From assembly GCA_036505255.1 (NCBI GenBank), contig DASXTT010000113.1:1-39031 (forward strand): DNA of 39,031 nucleotides, given 5' to 3'. The notes below the pieces were generated by a model. It was not told the DNA's origin. It ran no database searches and saw only the letters and a program-made list of their open reading frames with translations. Shown piece by piece: positions 27,066 to 39,031 of the stretch (its first letter is position 1; each line of letters opens with the position of its first letter). This stretch comes from Planctomycetota bacterium. GTDB taxonomy: Bacteria; Planctomycetota; MHYJ01; JACPRB01. Position numbers and translations under genes: made by a program.

Positions 27066-29126
27066 ATGCGACCCTTGGATCGGTCCGGGGTCCTCTCTAT
27101 GACTTTCCCACCACCACCACCGCCGCCGGGTCCGGTGACGCAGGCCACCGGCTTGTCCGCGCCTCCGAGGGCGGACCTGGGCGGGATCCTCCTGCGCATG
27201 GGTGCCGTCACCCCGGCGCAGCTCGACGAGTGCCTGAAGCTGCAGCAGTCGATGGCCGGCCAGCCCCACGTCCCGCGGATCGGCGAGCTCCTCCTGCACA
27301 AGGGCTACGCCACCAAGGAGTCGATCCAGAAGGCCCTCGCGGAGCAGAACAAGAAGGTCCTCCTCTGCCCGCGCTGCAACATCATGGTGACGGTCAACCT
27401 GAGGTCGGACGCCATCGGGTACAAGTGCGGCAAGTGCGAGACGATCCTCATCGAGCCCTCGCCCGATCGGGAGGACGACAGCATCGACTCGATGATCATC
27501 GTCCACAGCAGCCTTCCGGTACCGCCCGAGGTGCAGGAGGCCCGCAAGGACCCGACGAAGCGTTTCGGCAAGTACATCCTGCTGGGCGAGATCGGCCGGG
27601 GCGGCATCGGCACCATTTACCGCGCGTGGGACGTCTACCTGAACCAGTTCGTGGCCCTCAAGCGGATCAAGCCGCCGCCCATGGGGGCGGGACGCGGCGT
27701 CCGCCACACGCGCATCGCGAGCCTCCTCAACGAGGCTCACAACGCGATCCGGCTGCGCCACCCGAACATCGTGTCCGTCTACGACATCGGCCGCATCGAG
27801 GACGAGTACTACATCAGCATGGAGTTCCTCGACGGGCGGACGATGCTCGACGAGGTGCAGGAGTGCAAGAAGGCGGGCAAGGTTTCGCCCTTCCACGAGA
27901 ACTCGCGGAAGTGGCTCGGCGTGCTCTACGAGACGGCCCAGGCGCTTCACTACGCCCACACGCGCCCGGCTCCATTGCTCCACTGCGACCTCAAGCCCGC
28001 CAACATCATGGTGACCAAGGACGGGCGGACCTGCATCCTCGACTTCGGCCTGGCGCGCCAGCTCGGCGAGATCAAGGCGGAGCAGGGGGTCGTCAGCGGC
28101 ACGCCTTCGTACATGGCCCCGGAACAGGCGGCCGGGCGCAATGACCTCCTCGACCCCCGCACCGACGTGTACGGCCTGGGCGCGATCCTGTACGAACTGC
28201 TCGCGGGCCAGCCTCCCTACATCGGGGAGGTGATGGACGTGCTGAAGCGGGTGCAGGAGGAGAGGCCGAAGCCGCCGAGCGAACTGGCGTGGGGCCGGGA
28301 CCCGGCGAGCGGTTCCTCGCGGCGGATGCTCCTCGTTCCGCCGGAGCTGGAGGCGCTCTGCATGCGGAGCCTCTCCAAGGAAGCGGCCAAGCGTCCGGCG
28401 AGCGCGCTGGTCTTCGCCGAGGAAATCGCGCACACGATCGGGGGCGGCAAGCGGTCGCTCCCCAAGCAGGCGGCGAGCTCCACGCTTCACACGGAATTGC
28501 AGTCAATCGCCGAATCCTTCGGCGCCCGCAAGGGCCGGCTGGTCCCGATCCTGCTCATGGCGTTCATGATGATCCTGGCGGCCTCGGCCACGGTGATCTT
28601 CTACTCGAAGTTCCGCGGCACCTACGAATCCGACGCCCCCGAACAGACCGCCCTGAAGTACCTCGCGGAGTTCCGCCCGGAGGAGGTCGACAAGCTGGGT
28701 CCCGATGTCCTGCGGCGTCCGGAGCTCAGCGAGGTCGTGCGGCGCCGGGACCAGATGGCGTCATTCAAGCAGCAACTTATGGACTACATCGAGGCGAAGA
28801 ATCCCTTCATCTGGCGTCTGACGATCGGATCCCAGTCGGCGAGAAACGTCACGCTGCAGCGGGCCCGGGCGGACAGCGTCACCTTCGTCATCGGCCAGCA
28901 GCTGCCGGACAACGCTCCGTGGTCGCGCTTCGGTCCGACCGGCGTGCACGAGATGGCGAAGGAGTGGAAGCTCCTCAATTCCGCCGGGAACAAGTACGCC
29001 ATGGCCCTCTACGCCCTGTCGGCCAACACCAAGGGGCTGGCCCGCGACCTGTTCAACAGCCTCCAGGGAACCCAGTTCGCCGGGCAGGCGGCCGAGTACC
29101 TCCGGCAGCTCGACCTGGAGAAATGA
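27066..29126 (+). CDS. Hanks-type Ser/Thr protein kinase with an N-terminal T2SSE_N/MshEN-like module and zinc ribbon, one TM helix and a C-terminal extracytoplasmic domain
   Basis: DLGGILLRMGAVTPAQLDECLKLQ and RIGELLLHKGYATKESIQKALAEQ. CPRC..CGKC. Kinase motifs GEIGRGGIGTIY, VALKRIK, HCDLKPANIMV, DFGLAR, GTPSYMAPEQ. TM helix LVPILLMAFMMILAASATVIFY. The alternative start is ATG 27099. Confidence 0.88.
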   Translation: MRPLDRSGVLSMTFPPPPPPPGPVTQATGLSAPPRADLGGILLRMGAVTPAQLDECLKLQQSMAGQPHVPRIGELLLHKGYATKESIQKALAEQNKKVLLCPRCNIMVTVNLRSDAIGYKCGKCETILIEPSPDREDDSIDSMIIVHSSLPVPPEVQEARKDPTKRFGKYILLGEIGRGGIGTIYRAWDVYLNQFVALKRIKPPPMGAGRGVRHTRIASLLNEAHNAIRLRHPNIVSVYDIGRIEDEYYISMEFLDGRTMLDEVQECKKAGKVSPFHENSRKWLGVLYETAQALHYAHTRPAPLLHCDLKPANIMVTKDGRTCILDFGLARQLGEIKAEQGVVSGTPSYMAPEQAAGRNDLLDPRTDVYGLGAILYELLAGQPPYIGEVMDVLKRVQEERPKPPSELAWGRDPASGSSRRMLLVPPELEALCMRSLSKEAAKRPASALVFAEEIAHTIGGGKRSLPKQAASSTLHTELQSIAESFGARKGRLVPILLMAFMMILAASATVIFYSKFRGTYESDAPEQTALKYLAEFRPEEVDKLGPDVLRRPELSEVVRRRDQMASFKQQLMDYIEAKNPFIWRLTIGSQSARNVTLQRARADSVTFVIGQQLPDNAPWSRFGPTGVHEMAKEWKLLNSAGNKYAMALYALSANTKGLARDLFNSLQGTQFAGQAAEYLRQLDLEK

Positions 29127-29186: not shown

Positions 29187-32100
29187 ATGGGCGATCCCTC
29201 CCTCCAGGACGCGGCGACCGGGCTGGGCAATCGGCGCGGCCTGCTCTCCGCCCTCCGCGACCGCATGCCGGCCCAGACGGGCGCCCTGATCCTGATCGAT
29301 CTCGACGGCTTTCGAGCCTCCGTCGAAGGCCTTGACCGCAAACAGATCGACGCCCTGCTCATGGACATCGCCGGGCGGCTCCGCGAGGGGGCCGGGGCGG
29401 AGGCCCTCCTTTTCCGGTACGGCGGCGACGCCTTCGGTCTGCTGGTTCCGGAGGCGGATCGCGACAAGGGCGCCGCGGCGGCCGAGAATCTCCGCTCCTC
29501 CGTCGACCGCAAGCCCTTCATGTCCGGAACGCGCTACATCCCGATGACGGCCAGCGCGGCGGTCGCGACCTACCCCATGGATGGAAAGTCCCCGGCGGGA
29601 GTGATCGAGGCGGCCGAGAGGGCCCTGCTGGTCGCCAAGCAGCTGGGGCGGAACCGCATCGCGGTGGCGGGCCGGCTCGACCCCGCCGCGCTCGCCGAGA
29701 TCGGCATCTTCCGCGGGCTCCCCTGCCCGATTCACATCGGGCGCGTCGCGGAGCAATCCCGCCTGCGCCAGCTCGCCACGGACGTCCGCAACGTCGGGCC
29801 GGCCGTCGCGGTCGTCACGGGCGGAGCCGGCGTCGGCAAGTCGCGCCTCCTCCAGGAGCTGGGGGTGTGGGCGCGGGCGGAGAAATACATCGTCCTCGCC
29901 GCGACCTGCCAGGAGTCGCGCGCGACGGCCCCCTATGCGACCCTCGCCGAGCAGATCGAAACGCACATGGCCTCGGACCGCGACAAGGTCCTGCAGGCCA
30001 TGCAGCGCATCAGCCCGGCCCACCGCGCGGCGCTCGCCGTGGTCCTCCGCGACCTGCCGGTGGAGTGGACGACCGAAGCGACCGAGGCGGGCGTGGTCGG
30101 GAAGTTGATCTTCGAGGCCTTCGGGGCCCTGTTCGAGGAGCTGTCCCGGATCGGCCCGCTGCTCGTCCTGGCCGACGAGGTGGAGTTCGGGGACGCCGCC
30201 ACCTTCGAGGTGTACCGCGCCGCGATCAGCCGGAAGCTTCCCATCCTCGTCGTCGTCGGCACCGATCGACCGGCCCCCGAGATGGAGCTGATGCCCTCGG
30301 GGTCCTTCTGGCGGGACTTCGGACCCGGGGCGTCGCGGATCAACCTCCAGGCGCTCCCGGCCGAGGACCTGCGGCAGATGGTCCGCGGCATCCTGCCGGA
30401 CGCCGAGATCAGCAGCGAGTCCCTGGCGCGGCTCGTCGTGGCCGCCCAGGGGAATCCGCTCTACATCGAGGAAACGATCCGGTCGCTCCTCCTGCGGGGA
30501 CGCCTCAAGCTGGCCGGGGGCCGGTGGTCGCTCGCCGAGCTGACGGCCGCCGACCTGTCGCGCGATCTCGCGGGCGCCATGCGCGCCGTCTCGGAGGCGC
30601 TGCCCTCCGGGGCCAATTCCCTCCTGACCCGCGCCGCGGTGATCGGCACGCGCGTCGACCCCGAGCTGCTGCAGGAGGTGCTCGGCGAGGGGGACATGGA
30701 GATGCTGGACCTCATCGACGAGGTCCGGCGGTCCCGGCTCCTTCTGCCCTCGGAGTCGGGCCAGGATCTCCTCTCCTTCCCGGCGGCCCACGCGCGTCGG
30801 GCCCGGCTGCAGACCTCGGACGCGACGGAGCGCCGCGAGATTCACGGCCGCGTCGGCGTGGTGCAGGAGGCGCGTCACGGCGGCGACGTCGACCACATCG
30901 CGGACGAGATCGCGTTCCACTACGGCCGCGCGGGGCAGGAGGCCAAGGCCAAGCAGTTCGACCAGATCGCGCAGAAGCGCGCGGCGCTCATCCAGCCGCC
31001 CCAGAAGCCCGGCGTCCGCCGGCCCACGCTTCCCCAGATCACGACGGCCCTGGCGGCCCCGGCGACCGAGCAGGCCCTGGCCCTCATGCGCCACTTCATG
31101 GCGGCCGTGAAGATCGGGAGGCTCTACCCGCAGTGGAGCCAGGTCGGGACCACGTTCCTCGCCCAGCTGCGGGGTTCGCTGGAGGCGCTCCTCACGGGAG
31201 GGCCCGGCCTCACCTTCGCCGTGACCACGAACGGCCCCGCCATCAACGGGGTCGTGACCGACGCCCCGGTGGCCGCCGACTTCGCCCGGCTCATCGAGGA
31301 GCGCCTCATCGAATCGATCACCATCCTGAACACCTTCGAATTCCCGCGGATCGAGACGCTCGTCCGCACCTTCGCGGAGCCCTTCGACCGGTCGCGGGTG
31401 TCGCCCGATTACTGGGACCGCTTCCTAGCCCGCGAGGCGATGGGGGCGATCGACATCGTCCAGAAGGCCTACCAGGCCCGAGAAACCGTGCGGCGGACGC
31501 GCGTCCAGCACGGGGACACGGCCGTGCCGCCCGAGGACATCGGCGCCGTGCGCGACGCGCTCCGCTTCGTGAAGGCCGCGGTGGACAACCTGAAGCGCTA
31601 CCCGCCGGGCCATTCGCTGGTGGAGGAGACGACCGGCCAGAGCGTCCGCACTTTCCTCGAGCTCCTTCGCAAGGTGCCGGCCGTGACCATCGGGACCGCG
31701 GAAGGGGAGCTCGTCCTCAACGGACAGCCCGCGGACCGGAAGTTCTTCTCCGAGGCGGGGGCCTTCTTCACCAAGGAGATCGACCAGCGCAAGATCCAGA
31801 GCATCTCGGTGTGGCGCGGCCTGATGGAGGACGAAGTCCGCGCCCTCATCAGCTACTTTTCGCTGACGGCCGAGGAGGCCCTTCAGCCGGGGACGGGCGA
31901 GCGCCTGCTCACCCAGTTCACCCACGTCGCGTTCGGCTCCCGCGCCTACGAGCGGGCGACGGAGGAGGCCGGGGCGCCGCTCCACCCGCCGCCGAAGGCG
32001 GTGCGATCGGAACTCCGGGCCCGGGAGCACCTCTCCAAATCGGACGAGGAGTTCCTCACCCCCGACCTCGAGCGCCAGTTCCCCCTCCTCGTCGAGGCGC

Positions 32101-33248
32101 TGGCCTACGGGGCGGGGCGGACCCTGGCGGAGCAGCTCGTGGACCGGCTCGGGACCCACTTCCACCACCCGAGCCTCTCCCACCGCACGCGGGCCTTCAA
32201 CCTGCTGACGCGGTCGATCGCCTTCGCCTCCCCCGGAACGCGCAAGCTGGCCGTGATGCGGTCCGCCGCGTCGCTCAAGATGCGCCTGTCGGAGGATACG
32301 GAGCCGCTGCACGTGCGGGCCGCGGTGAACCTCCTGCCCGTCTGGATCCCGGCCGCCGCCGCGTCGGGCTGCCTCGGCGAGCTGGCGGAGATCGCGGGTC
32401 GGACCCTGCGGAGGCGGGCCGACTCCCCGGCGACGCCGCCGGAGGTGGCGGCCGTCTGCGAATCGGCCCTCCAGCTCATCCCGCAGTCGCAGGCCTACGA
32501 CGCGATCTGCGCCGCGGTCCGGAAGCCCGCCGAGGACGATCGCAACGCGGCCATCACGATCCTGCTTTCGGTCGGCGGCCCGACCGTGGAGAAGCTCGTC
32601 GAGATCCTGGCCGAGGAGTCGGACCTGCAGGTCCGGCGCGCGATCTCGCTCTCGCTCGCGCCGGCCTCGGAGCGGCTCTCGCCCGAGATCATCCGGCTTC
32701 TCCCGCCCGACGGCGAGCCGCAGCGGCTCGCCCGCGTGCTCATGGTGATCGAGCCGCTTCTGACGGGGACGGTGGCGGCCCACATCGCCACGCTGGCCGA
32801 GAAGTCGGGCCCGGACATCCGGGGAGTCATCCTCAAATCCGCCGAGCAGTGGCCCCGATCGGTGGCTTCGGGAGTCGTCCGCCGGCTCCTGGCCAGCCCG
32901 GCCCGGGATCTCCGCGACGCGGGGATCGAGGCGGCCACGCGGATGAAACTCGAGGCGGTCAAGGCGGAGATCGGCCGCATCCTCGAGGGGGCGCAGGACG
33001 AGCGGCTCATGGTCCTTTGCGCGGGATTCTTCCGGGAGGTGCCCAATCCCGCCGTCGTCGCGCTGCTGACGAAGATCGCCCAGACCCGTCCCAAGCTCTT
33101 CGGCCTCGTGAAAGGCTACGCGGCCGAGACCCGCGCGGCCGCCGTCCTGGCCCTGGCCGCCCAGGGGACCCGCCAGGCGGAGGAGGCCGTGACCGCGGCG
33201 GTGACCGATCCGAAGGTCAAGGCCCTCACGGAATCGAGGAAGAAGTAG
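29187..33248 (+). CDS. Degenerate GGDEF domain / STAND-type (AAA_16-like) NTPase / internally duplicated module / HEAT-repeat protein (1353 aa)
   Basis: GGDEF-like N-terminus with RYGGDAF (nt 29421-29435). Walker A GGAGVGKS (29820-29843). Walker B LLVLADEVEF. A helical region follows. Two related ~100-aa modules lie at about 31080-31385 and 31545-31865. HEAT-like C-terminus. Confidence 0.85.
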   Translation: MGDPSLQDAATGLGNRRGLLSALRDRMPAQTGALILIDLDGFRASVEGLDRKQIDALLMDIAGRLREGAGAEALLFRYGGDAFGLLVPEADRDKGAAAAENLRSSVDRKPFMSGTRYIPMTASAAVATYPMDGKSPAGVIEAAERALLVAKQLGRNRIAVAGRLDPAALAEIGIFRGLPCPIHIGRVAEQSRLRQLATDVRNVGPAVAVVTGGAGVGKSRLLQELGVWARAEKYIVLAATCQESRATAPYATLAEQIETHMASDRDKVLQAMQRISPAHRAALAVVLRDLPVEWTTEATEAGVVGKLIFEAFGALFEELSRIGPLLVLADEVEFGDAATFEVYRAAISRKLPILVVVGTDRPAPEMELMPSGSFWRDFGPGASRINLQALPAEDLRQMVRGILPDAEISSESLARLVVAAQGNPLYIEETIRSLLLRGRLKLAGGRWSLAELTAADLSRDLAGAMRAVSEALPSGANSLLTRAAVIGTRVDPELLQEVLGEGDMEMLDLIDEVRRSRLLLPSESGQDLLSFPAAHARRARLQTSDATERREIHGRVGVVQEARHGGDVDHIADEIAFHYGRAGQEAKAKQFDQIAQKRAALIQPPQKPGVRRPTLPQITTALAAPATEQALALMRHFMAAVKIGRLYPQWSQVGTTFLAQLRGSLEALLTGGPGLTFAVTTNGPAINGVVTDAPVAADFARLIEERLIESITILNTFEFPRIETLVRTFAEPFDRSRVSPDYWDRFLAREAMGAIDIVQKAYQARETVRRTRVQHGDTAVPPEDIGAVRDALRFVKAAVDNLKRYPPGHSLVEETTGQSVRTFLELLRKVPAVTIGTAEGELVLNGQPADRKFFSEAGAFFTKEIDQRKIQSISVWRGLMEDEVRALISYFSLTAEEALQPGTGERLLTQFTHVAFGSRAYERATEEAGAPLHPPPKAVRSELRAREHLSKSDEEFLTPDLERQFPLLVEALAYGAGRTLAEQLVDRLGTHFHHPSLSHRTRAFNLLTRSIAFASPGTRKLAVMRSAASLKMRLSEDTEPLHVRAAVNLLPVWIPAAAASGCLGELAEIAGRTLRRRADSPATPPEVAAVCESALQLIPQSQAYDAICAAVRKPAEDDRNAAITILLSVGGPTVEKLVEILAEESDLQVRRAISLSLAPASERLSPEIIRLLPPDGEPQRLARVLMVIEPLLTGTVAAHIATLAEKSGPDIRGVILKSAEQWPRSVASGVVRRLLASPARDLRDAGIEAATRMKLEAVKAEIGRILEGAQDERLMVLCAGFFREVPNPAVVALLTKIAQTRPKLFGLVKGYAAETRAAAVLALAAQGTRQAEEAVTAAVTDPKVKALTESRKK

Positions 33249-33394: not shown

Positions 33395-36352
33395 TCAGGG
33401 CTTGCCGTTCACGCGCTCCCGCGCCGACCGGATGGCGGGCTCGAGGCGGCTCCCGTATGAGGAGTCGATGCTGACGGCTTTCTCGAAATCGCGAAGGGCA
33501 TCGGCGTACCGGGCGAGCCGCAGCAGGATCTGTCCGCGATGCTCATAGACGGCGGCCGCTTCCGAGGCCAGCTGGACCGCCGCCTCCGCGGCCTCGAGGG
33601 CCTCGGTCCCCCGGTCCAGCGCTTCCAGCGCCCGGGCCCGCAGGAGGAGCGGCCACGCATCCCGGGGCTCCAGCTCGGAGGCCCGCTTGAAGAGCGGGAG
33701 CGCCTCTTCGGGCTCGCCCTTCCGGAGGCGCGCGAGACCTCCTCCGGCGGCCGCCAGGGCCGAGGAGGGCTCCAGGCCCGCCGCCGCGGCGAACGCCTCG
33801 CCGGCGCCGGCGAACCCGCCGCGCTCGATGAGAATCCGGCCCTTCACGAGCAGGGGGGCCGAGCGGTCGGGCGCGAGAGTCCGCGCCTCCTCCAGATCCG
33901 TGTCCGCCCCGGCCGCGTCGCCCCGCCTATGGCGGACCCACGCCCGGGCCAGTTTCGGTCCGGGATCGGCGGGCGCGTAGCGAATGGCGACGCCGAGGTC
34001 GGCGTCGGCCCCCGCCAGATCCTCGGCACCCAGGCGCGCCCAGCCGCGCAGCCGCCACGCGTCGGTGTCGGCGGGGAATTTCTCCAGGTACCGGTCGAGG
34101 ACGGCCGCGGCCTCCGCCGGTTTCCCGTCGAGCCATCGCAGGGCCGCCTGGGCGAAATCGTCCCGCGCCGGGTCGCGGGCGACCAGGGACCAGACGCTCG
34201 TGAGATCGACGTGCGCGCGTTCCCGTTCCTCGGCATGCGCCGGTGACGACGGAATCCCGTCAGGCCTGAAGTCGACGAGGAGGCCTTCCATGACCCGGGC
34301 CAGCCGGACTCTCGCCCGATCGCAGAGGGCCGCCGTGAGATCCGGGGCCCGGGCCAGCGCGGCGGTGAGGTCCTCCTCCGCCGCCGGTCCCGCTCCGCGG
34401 AGCATGCGCGCCCGCGCCCTCAGGTGCAGCGCTTCTTCGTGGTTGGGCACAATCTTCAGCGCCTCGTCGAGGATTTTCTCGACGGCCGCGACCCGCTCGA
34501 GGATTCCCGCACCGTCGAGCCCCACCTGCCTCGGGATCATCTCGAGCATCGTCCGCGCCGACCCAACCTGGGGGGCCACCTGGCGCCGCTTCTCGTCCAG
34601 GGCGAGCTCGCGGATGAATTCATCCCTCTGCGAAGCGATGCGCTGCACGACCCACTGGTGGAACTGGGTCATTCCGGGGTCTTCGGGGCGAAGCCGGAGG
34701 GCGGCTTGCGCGTGGAGCAGCGCCTCCTGATATTTCCGCTCGTCGAAGCTGCGCTGGGCCTCCCCCCTGAGCCGCGAGAATTCCCGCGAGTCCCGCGACA
34801 TGAGATACAGGACCAGGCTCCCGGACACCGCGAAGAGGGCCAGGGAGACCGCGGCGAGGGCGGTCGACTTGTTCTTGCGGATTCGCCGGAAGGCCCGGAT
34901 GGGCCACGGCTGGGGCCGCGCCAGGATCGGCTCGCCGTCGAGGTAGCGGCGCAGGTCGTCCGCGAACTCTCCCGCGGTCGCGTACCGGAGCGCGGGGTCC
35001 TTGTCGATCGCCTTCAGGCAGATCGTCTGAAGGTCGGGATGGACGCGCTCGTTGAAGACGCGCGGGGGCGGGGGCTCCTCGGTCAGGATCTTGTGGAAGA
35101 TTTCCACGCTGTTCTGGGCGACGTGAGGCGTGCGCCCGCAGAGGATCTCGTAGAGGATCACGCCGAGCGAATAGAGGTCGCTGCGCGGGCCGACGAGCCG
35201 CGTCTCCCCGCGGATCTGCTCCGGCGCCATGTAGTAGGGGGTCCCGAGGAAGCTCCCGTCGCGCGTCAGCATGGCGCGCTTGGGGTCGTCGAGGAACTTG
35301 GCGAGGCCGAAGTCCATGACGTGCGGCTCGCCGTTGAGGTCGATCATGATGTTCGCCGGCTTCAGGTCCCTGTGGACGATGCCCTGCTCGTGCGCGTGGT
35401 GGACGGCGCGGACCACCTTCTCGAGGCGCGCGATCATGTCGCGCACCTTGAATCCTCGGGCGAGGTGGGTCGTGAGGGGGTCGCCCTCGATGTAGTCCAT
35501 CGCGAGGTAGTGCATCCCCGCTTCCTGGCCCGCGTCGTGGATCGCCACGATGTTCGGGTGGCGGAGGCGCGCCTCGGCCTGCGCCTCGCGCTTGAAACGG
35601 TCGAGCACTTCGGCGGAGGCCATCTCGGTCTCGCGCAGGATTTTCAGGGCGAAGACCGTGTTCAGGTCCCGGTGGGCCGCCTTGTAGACGATGCCCATCC
35701 CGCCGCGGCCCAGTTCCTCGAGGATGGCGTACCGGCCGAACTGCGTTCCCACCTCCGCGGCGCGTTTCGCCGTCGCGGCCCCCATCGGGCCGGCCGGAGC
35801 CCCCTCGGGCTCCACCTGCGGGATCGGCACCACCGTCCCGCACCGCCGGCACGCGAACTTGGCCCCGCGATCTTTCTCGTCGAATCGGTAGAAGGTGTCG
35901 CAACCGGGACAGCGCACGATGGAGCGCCGCTGGACTTTGAGGATCTCGAGGAACTGTCCCGTCTGGAGCCAGCCCTTCCGGAGCAGGATCTGTCCGAGCA
36001 TCGCCGGGGAGCCGGAGCGCGAGAGGAGCGCCTGCTCCTCGAGCGCCTGGTTCACGTTTTCGGCCGCGACGAAGCCGAGGTCGAGCGCGATCTGCCCGAA
36101 GAGCCCGCCCCGGGCCGGGTCGGCGGCCACGATCCGGACCTGGCGGGTCTGGATGTCGAGGATCGCGGCGAGCCGCTTCGGGGTGATGTATCCCTTGTCG
36201 ATGAGGATCTCGCCCAGCTTGCGCGGCGCGGTCGCCTGTTTCTGGAGCGAGACGCACTCCTCGACCTGCTGGGCCGAAACGAAGCCCTCGCGGACGGCCA
36301 GGGAGCCGAGGAGCCGGTCGTCGCCTCCGCGCGTGGCAGCGGGATCAGACAC
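33395..36352 (-). CDS. Hanks-type Ser/Thr kinase with two N-terminal MshEN-like modules, zinc ribbon, TM helix and a long TPR region
   Basis: Start set at GTG 36352, with GGAGG 6 nt upstream. Four 24-aa repeats ending in Q. CPGC..CRRC. Kinase motifs LGRGGMGIVY, FALKIL, HRDLKPANIMI, DFGLAK, GTPYYMAPEQ. TM helix ALAAVSLALFAVSGSLVLYL. TPR-like repeats run to the C-terminus. Confidence 0.88.
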   Translation of the reverse strand: MSDPAATRGGDDRLLGSLAVREGFVSAQQVEECVSLQKQATAPRKLGEILIDKGYITPKRLAAILDIQTRQVRIVAADPARGGLFGQIALDLGFVAAENVNQALEEQALLSRSGSPAMLGQILLRKGWLQTGQFLEILKVQRRSIVRCPGCDTFYRFDEKDRGAKFACRRCGTVVPIPQVEPEGAPAGPMGAATAKRAAEVGTQFGRYAILEELGRGGMGIVYKAAHRDLNTVFALKILRETEMASAEVLDRFKREAQAEARLRHPNIVAIHDAGQEAGMHYLAMDYIEGDPLTTHLARGFKVRDMIARLEKVVRAVHHAHEQGIVHRDLKPANIMIDLNGEPHVMDFGLAKFLDDPKRAMLTRDGSFLGTPYYMAPEQIRGETRLVGPRSDLYSLGVILYEILCGRTPHVAQNSVEIFHKILTEEPPPPRVFNERVHPDLQTICLKAIDKDPALRYATAGEFADDLRRYLDGEPILARPQPWPIRAFRRIRKNKSTALAAVSLALFAVSGSLVLYLMSRDSREFSRLRGEAQRSFDERKYQEALLHAQAALRLRPEDPGMTQFHQWVVQRIASQRDEFIRELALDEKRRQVAPQVGSARTMLEMIPRQVGLDGAGILERVAAVEKILDEALKIVPNHEEALHLRARARMLRGAGPAAEEDLTAALARAPDLTAALCDRARVRLARVMEGLLVDFRPDGIPSSPAHAEERERAHVDLTSVWSLVARDPARDDFAQAALRWLDGKPAEAAAVLDRYLEKFPADTDAWRLRGWARLGAEDLAGADADLGVAIRYAPADPGPKLARAWVRHRRGDAAGADTDLEEARTLAPDRSAPLLVKGRILIERGGFAGAGEAFAAAAGLEPSSALAAAGGGLARLRKGEPEEALPLFKRASELEPRDAWPLLLRARALEALDRGTEALEAAEAAVQLASEAAAVYEHRGQILLRLARYADALRDFEKAVSIDSSYGSRLEPAIRSARERVNGKP

Positions 36353-36488
36353 GGCGAACCTCCGATGTCGATGGCGGGCGGGGATCGGCAGGCGGGCCGT
36401 TCCCCCCTGCGGCCAAAGTATACCTGATGGGCCCGCGGCCGGGTGGCGCGCTCCCCTTTTCGCCCCTCGTGGGGTATAACGGAGGCCC

Positions 36489-39031
36489 ATGGCGGACGCC
36501 CCCGAAAAGGATCTCGCCAAAGACGGACTGCTCGCGATCGCGCCGCGCGACCCGACCGGCCGCCCCACCCTCGGCGGAATCCCTCTCTACAAGAAACTCG
36601 GCCAGGGGGGGATGGGCGCGGTCTACCTGGGAAAACACCCGCGGCTCGGCGTCGAGGTCGCCGTCAAGATCCTCCCTTTTCACCTCGCCGACCAGGACCC
36701 CAACGCCATCGAGTATTTCATGCGGGAGGCGAACGTCGCCGCGCGGCTGAACCACCCGAGCCTGGTGCGCATCTTCGACGTCAACGTCGACGGCGATCCC
36801 AAGGCGGGCTCGGCGATCTGGTACCTGGTCATGGAGTTCGTCTCGGGCCTGACCGGGGGAAAGCTCATCCGCGAGCGCATGAAAGGCGGGAAGGGGCCCC
36901 TGTCGGAAGCGGACGCGCTCGATCTCCTGCTCACCGTGAGCGACGGCCTCGCCGCCGCCCACGAGGAGAATTTCGTCCACCGCGACATCAAGCCTGAGAA
37001 CATCATCATCCCCCTCTCCCCCGAGGGCGAGCCGCAGTTCCGGAAAGCGAAGCTCATGGACCTCGGCCTCGCCAAGCTCCTGTCCGAGGAACGGTCCATC
37101 GGGTTGACGGGGACAAACGTGGCCATGGGGACGCCGGGCTACATGGCGCCCGAACAGGCGGAAAACGCGAAGGGGGCGGGCCCGCCCTCGGACGTCTTCG
37201 CGATGGGCGCGACGCTCTACACGCTCCTGACGGGATCGGCGCCGTTCACGGGGACCACCGTCCTTCACGTCCTGAAGAAGACGAGCGAAGAGCCCCATCC
37301 GCCCCTGCGGAACGTCAACCCCGCCGTGAGCCGGCCGACGGAGGTCCTCGTCGACACCTGCCTCGCCAAGCGACCCGAGGCGCGGTACGCGAGCGCGGGC
37401 GTGCTTCGCGAGGCGCTGAAGGCGTGCCGCCAATCCCTCGGCGGCGAGATTTCCACCGACCGGACGCTCGCCTCGCTCCAGAATCTCGCCTCGGTCGCCT
37501 CCACCGACCCGACGGTCCGGGCGCCCTCCCCGTCGATCCTCCCTTCGGCCTCCCCCCGGACCGGCGTGACGGCGAAGACGCCCGAGCCCGAGGTGGCGGC
37601 CCCGTCCGTACCGGCGCCGGCTCCCGCGGCACCCTCCTCGCCGGGTCCGGCGCGGAGATCGAAGGCGCCGCTTCTCGTCGCCGCGGCGGCGGTCGCCCTC
37701 CTGGCCGCGGCCGGAATCGGAGCCTTCATCGTTTTCCGGCCCGGCGGGAGAGGATCCTCCGAGAAGACCGACCCCGGGAAAAAAGAAATCCCCCCCGACG
37801 CGGCCGGCGCCGAATTCGCCCAGGCCATGCGTGACGCGGAAGGCGCCCTCAACGATGAGGACTACGCGAAGGCGGAAGCGCTGTACAAGGAGGCGCGTCA
37901 CCTCAGGCCCCAGTCCTCGGAGGCCGAGGAGGGAGAGCGCCGGGCCCGCCAGCTCACGGAGCAGGCTTCGTCGGTCGCCACCGCCGTGGGCGACGCCGAA
38001 GCGCTCGCCGTGTCGAAGGATTACGCTTCCGCATGGCAGAAACTCCGGACGGCCATCGACCGCCACCCCGACGCGATCACCCTCCGAACCGCGTCGGCGA
38101 AGCTGGCCCTCGACCACGGGACGTACGCCTGGCTCGGCCTCGCCCTCAACGACGCCAACGTCGCCCTCCGGCTGGCGGGCCCGAAGCGCAAGCCCGCGGC
38201 GACCCAGCTGCGCGACAAGCTGGAGGCGAAGAAGAAATCGGCGGAAGCGGCGGGCGGAGTGCTTCCCCAGATCCAGCTCGCGATCGACCGCGGCGATTGG
38301 GACGCCGCGGAAAAGCTGCTCGACCAGGTCGAACCCGCGGAGCGAGGCGCATTCACGCGCGCGATCGAGCAGGGCCGGAAGTGGCAGGCGGCCATGGCGC
38401 GGGGAAAAAAGGCGGAGGAGTCGCGCCAGTGGCCCGAGGCGCTCGCGGCGTACCACGAGGCGCTCTTGTTGAAGTCCGACCCCGCGACGGACGAGGCCAT
38501 CCGGCGCGCCGAACAGGAAGTCAAGTCGCAGTACGGAGCGGAGTGCGACGGGGCCCTGCACGAGGCCAAGGGCGGTCGCTTCGACGAGGCGCGGCGCCAC
38601 CTGGCGGCCGCCGAACAGCTGACGCCCTCCGGCCTGCGCCACAACAAGCTCAAGGACGAGATCCAGTTCCTGGAGCACCTCGCGGAGGCGCGCAAGCTCC
38701 GCCGGGACGGGAAGAACGCCGACGCCCTCGCGGCCGCGCGGAGGGCGCTCGCGCTCCGCGGCGATTCGCCCGAGGCCCGGACGCTCGTCGAGGAGCTTGG
38801 ACGCGAAGGCCCGCTCGCCGGGGCGAAGGCGGCGCTGGCCGGCGGCGACCGCGCGACGGCCGCGCGGCTCGCGCGCGCCGCGGCCGCGGACAACCCCGCG
38901 GCCCCCGAGCTGAAAGACCTCGAGCGGGAGCTGTGGCCCGACCTGTTCGCTGAAAAGGCCAAGTCCCCGGCGGCCGGGCCCGTTGACGACCTGGCCGCCG
39001 CCTCCGACGGGCGAATCGTCGGCACGGGGGG
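36489..39031 (+). CDS. Third Hanks-type Ser/Thr kinase with TM helix and TPR-like region; 3'-truncated by the window end and absent from the supplied ORF track
   Basis: I translated this frame codon by codon and found no stop from ATG 36489 to nt 39031. Motifs: LGQGGMGAVYLG, VAVKIL, HRDIKPENIII, DLGLAK, GTPGYMAPEQ. TM helix LLVAAAAVALLAAAGIGAFIVF. Repeated helical Ala/Glu/Arg-rich pairs follow. GGAGG precedes the ATG. Confidence 0.85.
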   Translation, partial: MADAPEKDLAKDGLLAIAPRDPTGRPTLGGIPLYKKLGQGGMGAVYLGKHPRLGVEVAVKILPFHLADQDPNAIEYFMREANVAARLNHPSLVRIFDVNVDGDPKAGSAIWYLVMEFVSGLTGGKLIRERMKGGKGPLSEADALDLLLTVSDGLAAAHEENFVHRDIKPENIIIPLSPEGEPQFRKAKLMDLGLAKLLSEERSIGLTGTNVAMGTPGYMAPEQAENAKGAGPPSDVFAMGATLYTLLTGSAPFTGTTVLHVLKKTSEEPHPPLRNVNPAVSRPTEVLVDTCLAKRPEARYASAGVLREALKACRQSLGGEISTDRTLASLQNLASVASTDPTVRAPSPSILPSASPRTGVTAKTPEPEVAAPSVPAPAPAAPSSPGPARRSKAPLLVAAAAVALLAAAGIGAFIVFRPGGRGSSEKTDPGKKEIPPDAAGAEFAQAMRDAEGALNDEDYAKAEALYKEARHLRPQSSEAEEGERRARQLTEQASSVATAVGDAEALAVSKDYASAWQKLRTAIDRHPDAITLRTASAKLALDHGTYAWLGLALNDANVALRLAGPKRKPAATQLRDKLEAKKKSAEAAGGVLPQIQLAIDRGDWDAAEKLLDQVEPAERGAFTRAIEQGRKWQAAMARGKKAEESRQWPEALAAYHEALLLKSDPATDEAIRRAEQEVKSQYGAECDGALHEAKGGRFDEARRHLAAAEQLTPSGLRHNKLKDEIQFLEHLAEARKLRRDGKNADALAAARRALALRGDSPEARTLVEELGREGPLAGAKAALAGGDRATAARLARAAAADNPAAPELKDLERELWPDLFAEKAKSPAAGPVDDLAAASDGRIVGTG

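Follow-up and report, generated by a model that had tools for sequence, protein, structure and literature searches.

The closest described relatives of the protein considered here are the MshEN receptors of cyclic di-GMP (c-di-GMP). In Vibrio cholerae MshE (5HTL), the MshEN_N subdomain forms a four-helix bundle from two 24-residue motifs that read RLGxx(L/V/I)(L/V/I)xxG(L/V/I)(L/V/I)xxxxLxxxLxxQ, and the ligand is bound mainly through hydrophobic contacts, recognition of guanine falling to the backbone NH of the motif Gly and of the residue that follows it (Wang et al., 2016, PMC5013675). A second case is Thermus thermophilus PilF, a multi-copy tandem array in which the GSPII-B domain (8PDK) has non-Arg residues, K167 and L196, at its first motif positions, stacks them hydrophobically on guanine, and binds c-di-GMP with a dissociation constant (KD) of 6 nM (PMC11731258). 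Both tandem (MshEN_N)2 proteins and fusions of MshEN to Ser/Thr kinases were listed in 2016 (Wang et al., 2016, PMC5013675), Stigmatella aurantiaca PKN11 (Pkinase-MshEN-UNK-REC) being the published precedent for the latter. Here we analyze a 39,031-nucleotide contig of a Planctomycetota bacterium (DASXTT010000113.1; hereafter the window), in which a 985-residue receptor-type Ser/Thr kinase, kinase 2 (P0001; 33395-36352, minus strand), opens with four motifs of this type and a zinc ribbon. On balance, we lean towards the prediction that kinase 2 is a c-di-GMP-sensing receptor kinase, in which ligand binding by the N-terminal module would gate kinase output.

Translation from the GTG codon at 36352 places four 24-residue repeats at exactly nucleotides 36313 to 35930, where the original prediction had located them. 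All lie on the minus strand: repeat 1, LLGSLAVREGFVSAQQVEECVSLQ (residues 14-37; 36242-36313), and repeat 2, KLGEILIDKGYITPKRLAAILDIQ (residues 45-68; 36149-36220; aligned to MshE 38-61), constitute motifs I and II of unit 1, and repeat 3, LFGQIALDLGFVAAENVNQALEEQ (residues 84-107; 36032-36103), and repeat 4, MLGQILLRKGWLQTGQFLEILKVQ (residues 118-141; 35930-36001), those of unit 2. A nearly invariant DPxRGG precedes repeat 3; the longer string D-P-x-R-G-G-L-F-G-Q (residues 78-87, nucleotides ~36092-36121) hardly varies, whether in the kinase orthologues or in stand-alone paralogues of the module. A relaxed version of the motif, hGxxhhxxGhhxxxxhxxxhxxQ, matches kinase 2 four times as compared with a mean of 0.0006 matches per shuffle over 20,000 shuffles, and on this ground chance and low sequence complexity are rejected as the source of the repeats. 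Unit 1 aligns to unit 2 with 32% identity over 62 residues (E=5e-11), and the closest pairs of individual repeats are 1/3 and 2/4 (9/24 positions each), repeats 1 and 2 agreeing at only 4/24. This arrangement indicates that the array, of A-B-A-B form, arose when a unit of two motifs was duplicated, and it bears out the earlier proposal of two MshEN-like units forming a duplicated module.

Inspection of the motif positions reveals that Gly3, Gly10, the hydrophobic residues at positions 17 and 21, and Gln24 are present in all four repeats, as they are in MshE. Judged by the extended consensus of PMC11731258, (R/K/L)LGxxhhxxGhhxxxxLxxxLxxQ, applied as two consecutive 24-residue motifs, kinase 2 carries the motif, with deviations confined to A6 in repeats 1 and 3, F2 in repeat 3, and M1 in repeat 4. 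The repeats begin with L, K, L and M, respectively, so that first-position Arg is absent and Lys occurs once, as had been remarked before; R13 and R44 directly precede repeats 1 and 2. Kinase 2 shares its non-Arg first positions with PilF GSPII-B and differs in this respect from MshE, where both are Arg.

Profile searches agree with this assignment. NCBIfam NF053729 (cyclic di-GMP-binding domain-containing protein, MshE-related), a 53-position model with a curated cut-off of 38 bits that also describes MshE, scores 60.4 bits against the whole of kinase 2, with a match at residues 15-67 in unit 1, and 47.0 bits against unit 1 alone; failure in profile searches had been named beforehand as an outcome that would refute the repeats, and they pass this one. 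A Pfam search of kinase 2 and of each unit returned no match to PF05157 (T2SSE_N), even at E<=10. That model describes the full MshEN domain including its C-terminal subdomain, MshEN_C, which kinase 2 lacks, since unit 2 directly follows unit 1 and the ribbon follows unit 2. Pfam was rejected as sole judge of the N-terminus: it offered only sub-threshold or spurious matches to FumaraseC_C and PatA_N/DUF4388, and would have failed repeats that NF053729 passes. Sequence searches of the PDB with kinase 2 recovered T. thermophilus PilF (6f8l, 1.2e-6) and V. cholerae MshE (5htl, 5e-4), each aligned motif to motif.

To the sequence matches can be added a predicted structure. An AlphaFold2 model of residues 1-189, built on 43 stand-alone homologues, has a mean predicted local distance difference test (pLDDT) score of 81 and comprises four helices in unit 1 (residues 12-21, 27-39, 46-52 and 58-76), four in unit 2 (83-92, 97-112, 119-125 and 131-144) and a four-stranded ribbon. 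Its best match in the PDB is c-di-GMP-bound MshE (5htl_B; root-mean-square deviation (rmsd) 1.1 Å over 56 columns, 38% identity, probability 1.00), followed by c-di-GMP-bound PilF GSPII-B (9gl5 and 8pfa; rmsd 1.0-1.1 Å). The four-helix bundle, as predicted rather than as determined by experiment, thus superposes on the ligand-bound structures of both receptors, and profile, sequence matches and fold concur that the repeats are of MshEN_N type, as originally proposed.

Six residues beyond the last motif, the chain enters a zinc ribbon whose core, C148-x2-C151-x16-C168-x2-C171 (35840-35911, minus strand), sits within four short strands at residues 145-176. The original prediction had correctly called a four-Cys ribbon here but read its spacing as CPGC-x18-CRRC, whereas the intervening stretch is x16. 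Scores against PF13717 (Zn_ribbon_4; 29.4 bits, cut-off 30.3) and TIGR02098 (MJ0042-type; 17.3 bits, cut-off 20.9) fall just short of threshold, and Foldseek matches the ribbon of the AlphaFold2 model to the zinc finger of ZitP and to LysW. The CxxC-x16-CxxC spacing and the four short predicted strands of this ribbon are shared with MJ0042-type ribbons and ZitP (2NB9), from which the ribbon differs in being fused to, and co-inherited with, an MshEN motif. As modeled, then, the N-terminus of kinase 2 is a compact 170-residue module in which a four-Cys zinc ribbon caps two MshEN_N four-helix bundles arranged in tandem.

The remainder of the protein indicates that kinase 2 is a single-pass, receptor-type Hanks Ser/Thr kinase with intact catalytic motifs. 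Its kinase domain (residues 208-457; 34982-35731) scores 178 bits against PF00069 (Pkinase) and has the features of a Hanks-type Ser/Thr enzyme, K237, H327-R-D-L-K-P-x-N334, D347-F-G and P377-E378 (of the APE motif) being invariant across 32 kinase 2 orthologues. A single transmembrane helix is predicted from a hydropathy window at residues 499-519 (34796-34858), just after the basic string RAFRRIRKNK, and a predicted extracytoplasmic region at residues ~621-966 (33455-34492) matches several TPR families; this order of kinase, helix and TPRs after the ribbon is as first described. Between module and kinase lies a flexible linker (residues ~179-207; 35732-35818) that is poorly conserved among orthologues and has pLDDT values of 30-37 at residues 182-202 in a 500-residue model, consistent with a disordered segment of ~25 residues. 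The module is thus an input held on a tether, not a rigid continuation of the kinase. All of these features lie on the minus strand. The GTG start at 36352 (stop at 33395) fits the start position shared by the orthologues, which also match kinase 2 in length, and a Shine-Dalgarno-like GGAGG read from the sequence (36359-36363, minus strand) lies 6 nucleotides 5' of it.

Set beside the known systems, kinase 2 is distinctive in several respects. As compared with MshE, it is without MshEN_C and without a type II secretion or type IV pilus ATPase; its units are in tandem, they are joined to a ribbon, and the output is a Hanks kinase. The tandem units of PilF are whole GSPII domains with a C-terminal subdomain that regulate a pilus ATPase, whereas those of kinase 2 are bare four-helix bundles. 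Bare pairs, as in kinase 2, occur in Cyanothece cce_1044, Geobacter lovleyi Glov_2742 (with CheX) and Myxococcus xanthus MXAN_7396 (with REC-cyclase), and in the latter two the first motif is of x-F-G type (KFFG and PLFG), as in repeat 3 of kinase 2; these proteins have no listed zinc ribbon, and their listed outputs are CheX or REC-cyclase rather than a kinase (Wang et al., 2016). PKN11, for its part, places the kinase first, has a full single MshEN and no zinc ribbon, and comes from the Myxococcales.

A HMMER scan with residues 1-189 over 1.84 billion cluster representatives found 2344 representatives matching the module at E<=1e-3, of which 603 pass a threshold of 1e-10 and 22 one of 1e-30, and in 121 of the best 148 a single alignment covers the whole module (query residues ≤16 to ≥170). 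A regular-expression scan of representatives places the motifs usually near residues 8, 39, 81 and 115, with CxxC..CxxC at ~145-168. Column statistics from 122 module sequences show Gly3 conserved at 93-95% and the terminal Gln at 89-95% in each repeat, and the four ribbon Cys at 98-100%. First positions are L (86%) in repeat 1, P/K/R (61/9/9%) in repeat 2, L/I (67/15%) in repeat 3 and R/P/K/M (47/11/9/7%) in repeat 4; repeats 1 and 3 usually read L-F-G-x-I-A, so that a hydrophobic first residue there is the family norm, and M118 in repeat 4 is the main departure of kinase 2 from it. A 7-residue linker between motifs is likewise the norm across the family.

Is c-di-GMP the ligand? The original prediction had taken the missing first-position Arg as a sign that another ligand, if any, might be bound, a suggestion that measurements on PilF GSPII-B contradict: starting from K and L at these positions and 6 nM affinity, the K167L mutant binds at 2 nM, L196R at 23 nM and K167R at 150 nM, and the consensus has accordingly been widened to (R/K/L)LG..., with a large hydrophobic first residue favoring very high affinity (PMC11731258). 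Since K and L support nanomolar binding in PilF, the L/K/L/M series of kinase 2 provides no argument for a different ligand. A module that binds some other nucleotide, for example 3'3'-cyclic GMP-AMP (cGAMP) or another cyclic di- or oligonucleotide, is accordingly quite improbable. It could appeal to the weak binding of cGAMP by MshEN, but the same study records no detectable binding of cyclic di-AMP (PMC5013675). The F2/A6 variant seen in repeats 1 and 3 does lie outside the motifs that have been assayed. In repeat 3, F2 and A6 may compensate for each other within the core; the Gly whose backbone NH reads guanine is retained.

Mutational and comparative data on non-binding relatives further favor c-di-GMP. 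Binding by XpsE has been lost via changes at the Gly, the hydrophobic positions and the Gln (PMC5013675), and in PilF GSPII-A the terminal Gln of both motifs is required for binding, a Gly-to-Ala substitution costs ~10-fold, and no binding is left when motif II begins with Ser (PMC12002112). None of the residues known to be essential is missing from any of the four repeats of kinase 2, and the same positions are lost in the non-binders XpsE and PilF GSPII-A. Because the terminal Gln contacts the ligand and not the core in MshE and PilF, its conservation at the level seen across the module family is hard to explain unless a ligand is bound. Judging from these sequence features, c-di-GMP binding by at least one unit of kinase 2 is likely.

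The same conserved positions bear on a different proposal, in which the module is a diverged, nucleotide-blind MshEN_N scaffold that provides the kinase with a device for protein-protein interaction, dimerization or localization. Precedents for such a role exist, as the N-domain of XpsE/GspE docks on GspL and the zinc finger of ZitP binds a polar organiser. Non-binding MshEN relatives are known as well (XpsE, PilF GSPII-A and D. geothermalis PilB_3); the inter-motif linkers of kinase 2 exceed that of MshE and unit 2 scores under the curated cut-off; the ribbon looks like LysW and the zinc finger of ZitP, two modules that bind proteins; and stand-alone copies of the module, many 172 residues long, could be adaptors. 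Yet the motif Gly, the terminal Gln and the hydrophobic residues at 17 and 21 are kept in all repeats and throughout the family, unlike in known non-binders, and the Gln conservation noted above is as hard to account for by a scaffold. We regard this alternative as unlikely, if less so than a different nucleotide.

How many of the two units might act as sites can be considered in light of other module-bearing proteins in the same metagenome-assembled genome (MAG), G000, which is 2.2 Mb in size and 78% complete. The double module is found in five of its open reading frames (ORFs), of which three encode kinases and two encode stand-alone proteins; a single unit and ribbon occur in three kinases, a tandem pair on contig 294 besides kinase 1 of the window; and in all 6 of ~24 Hanks-kinase ORFs bear a single or double unit; GGDEF matches in this genome number 6. 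The N-terminus of kinase 1 (27174-27446, plus strand) comprises one MshEN_N unit and a ribbon that is equivalent to that of kinase 2, as had been recognized from the start, and is collinear with unit 2 plus ribbon; the single-unit kinases as a group align to this same part of the double module. The tandem pair consists of adjacent Hanks kinases with the ribbon at the N-terminus, like kinase 1 (C294 5446-7569 and 7594-9246, both plus strand). The two stand-alone double MshEN_N-ribbon ORFs (C284 4934-5542 and C250 12361-13011, both minus strand) span 203 and 217 codons from stop to stop, and 172-residue "hypothetical proteins" resembling them are found on long contigs of many metagenomes.

These data bear on the possibility that unit 1 is the sole working c-di-GMP site, with unit 2 and the ribbon serving a structural or relay function and one ligand bound per monomer. 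Unit 1 by itself clears the curated cut-off of NF053729 with 47 bits, whereas unit 2 falls short with 35.9; the 10-residue linker of unit 2 is the longest; and at a position that is R in 47% of the wider module family, unit 2 carries M or L in the kinase 2 family. Against this, the alignment of the single-unit kinases to unit 2 and the ribbon marks unit 2 as the ancestral or core sensor position, its Gly and Gln are fully retained, and a hydrophobic first position is favorable in PilF. A single-site arrangement is therefore a rather doubtful alternative, though a better one than a nucleotide-blind scaffold.

In the mechanism that we favor, each MshEN_N unit would bind one c-di-GMP in the manner of MshE and PilF, for up to two per module. 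In each unit, guanine would be read through backbone NH groups, those of the motif Gly and of the residue after it, the bases would be sandwiched by the motif hydrophobics (positions 2, 17 and 21) together with the first-position L, K or M, and the Gln that ends the motif would keep the ribose-phosphate in place. Once c-di-GMP is bound, the contact of the module with the kinase domain, a second protomer or a partner recruited by the ribbon would shift, and these altered contacts would change kinase output by way of autoinhibition, dimerization or zinc-ribbon partner recruitment. The periplasmic TPR domain would add a second input, which the kinase would integrate with the intracellular level of c-di-GMP.

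Several observations weigh against this reading. Within the module, the inter-motif linkers are 7 residues (KQATAPR) in unit 1 and 10 (ALLSRSGSPA) in unit 2, longer than the five residues found in MshE and expected of its relatives, although PilF GSPII-C, a c-di-GMP binder, aligns to kinase 2 over the same 7-residue gap. The match of NF053729 to unit 2 alone (35.9 bits, E 4.8e-9) is split by the longer linker and remains ~2 bits under the cut-off, and the motifs of this unit include F2, A6 and M1. Searches of the literature found no binding data for MshEN_N units that are in tandem, have a first motif starting with hydrophobic-F-G or are capped by a zinc ribbon. Structural context can also block binding despite a perfect motif, as in PilF GSPII-A, where an extended first helix prevents it (PMC12002112); the Pro and Gly-Gly before repeat 3 might be expected to block N-terminal extension of helix 1 of unit 2. 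Beyond the module, a signal would have to cross a disordered linker to reach the kinase. The GGDEF-STAND gene beside kinase 2 (29187-33248, plus strand) reads RYGGDAF where GGDEF would be expected and lacks an RxxD shortly before it, so that its product, to judge by these motifs, is probably neither a cyclase nor an I-site binder, which weakens the idea of a producer beside its receptor; nor is this degenerate gene a conserved neighbor. A phylogenetic profile of module against GGDEF was discarded as uninformative: GGDEF occurs in 151 of 151 Planctomycetota genomes sampled, and its universality in the phylum means that co-occurrence lends no support.

Orthologues of kinase 2 allow the neighborhood to be traced. 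Full-length orthologues with the same architecture form ~35 clusters of 936-1009 residues, with N-terminal modules 48-99% identical to that of kinase 2, all of which keep the four repeats and the ribbon. The order kinase 1, GGDEF-STAND, kinase 2 and divergent kinase 3 recurs at an orthologue with an 82%-identical N-terminus, and no GGDEF was seen around four orthologues with ~50%-identical N-termini, where the neighbors are other Pkinase genes, an M61 peptidase or an ECF sigma/anti-sigma pair, Pkinase and M61 recurring. The view that two kinases converging on the GGDEF-STAND gene reflect a family-specific architecture is not supported by this comparison, and conserved linkage was set aside as a family-wide feature: the link to GGDEF-STAND is a clade-specific context, kept in a close relative, and not a property of the family. 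Kinase 3 (36489-39031, plus strand) is a third Hanks kinase, transcribed divergently from kinase 2, that runs past the end of the window; it is without the MshEN and zinc-ribbon N-terminus, its kinase domain begins at residue 34, and it has DLG for DFG (KLMDLGLAK). A divergently transcribed Pkinase gene also lies immediately upstream of the orthologues L002 and L016 and ~2 kb upstream at L003.

The module itself is far more widespread than this neighborhood. Pkinase accompanies it in 38 of 73 module proteins longer than 260 residues, the other partners being FGE-sulfatase, Amidase_2, HEAT and HATPase_c, so that the earlier view of the fusion as something other than chance is upheld by a whole module that recurs in hundreds of proteins, for the most part kinases. 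Among whole-module proteins, 46 of 121 are no longer than 260 residues, and a second search recovered 54 stand-alone module proteins, most of 145-215 residues and many of exactly 172, that are 40-51% identical to the kinase 2 N-terminus; the presence of several on contigs of 50-108 kb indicates that they are real genes. The named members all come from Planctomycetota MAGs, save one Acidobacteria-labelled match of 151 residues, and in public annotation they are just "protein kinase" or "hypothetical protein". A scan of genome contigs, which reached only the close GGLFGQIA subfamily, placed all of its matches in Planctomycetota MAGs. The module profile is found at E<=1e-10 in 69 of the 151 sampled Planctomycetota genomes, nearly all of the matches listed spanning the whole module, and two of these genomes have at least 23 copies each.

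Some members are more elaborate than kinase 2. P0043, P0047 (~1970 residues), P0058, P0135, P0173 and P0177 have two to three full modules, or 8-12 canonical R/K-type motifs, per protein, and some of them contain several zinc ribbons. Among 73 module proteins, Pfam assigns the MshEN-type motif to FumaraseC_C (PF10415) in 15 (best E 6.7e-15; P0145 reaches 35 bits against a cut-off of 32.5) and gives matches to PatA_N/DUF4388 (PF14332) in 17, the proteins concerned coming from the sets P0039-P0186 and P0187-P0239. These matches look like cross-hits to the helix-hairpin motif, and they could mislead automatic annotation.

A protein of this kind was foreseen in 2016, and the combination of (MshEN_N)2, ribbon and kinase appears to be undescribed: in the literature on MshEN with zinc or in Planctomycetes, we found no description of the N-terminal (MshEN_N)2-ribbon unit, of its copy number or of its predominance among the kinases of Planctomycetota. 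That c-di-GMP directly controls eukaryote-like Ser/Thr kinases is a prediction made from domain architectures since 2016, and we found no demonstration of it in the literature searched. We tentatively suggest, as a broader possibility, that (MshEN_N)2 plus ribbon may constitute an unnamed c-di-GMP receptor module that has expanded in Planctomycetota with Hanks kinases as its main output, such that c-di-GMP would gate many receptor kinases through two sites per monomer and the stand-alone 172-residue copies would act as buffers or adaptors. If true, this would represent a wiring of second messenger to phosphorylation that has not been demonstrated in any bacterium. To our knowledge, the recognized c-di-GMP receptors of Planctomycetota are few; should the module bind c-di-GMP, it would supply this phylum with many, and would offer, in its compact and expressible 170 residues, an object on which to test them.

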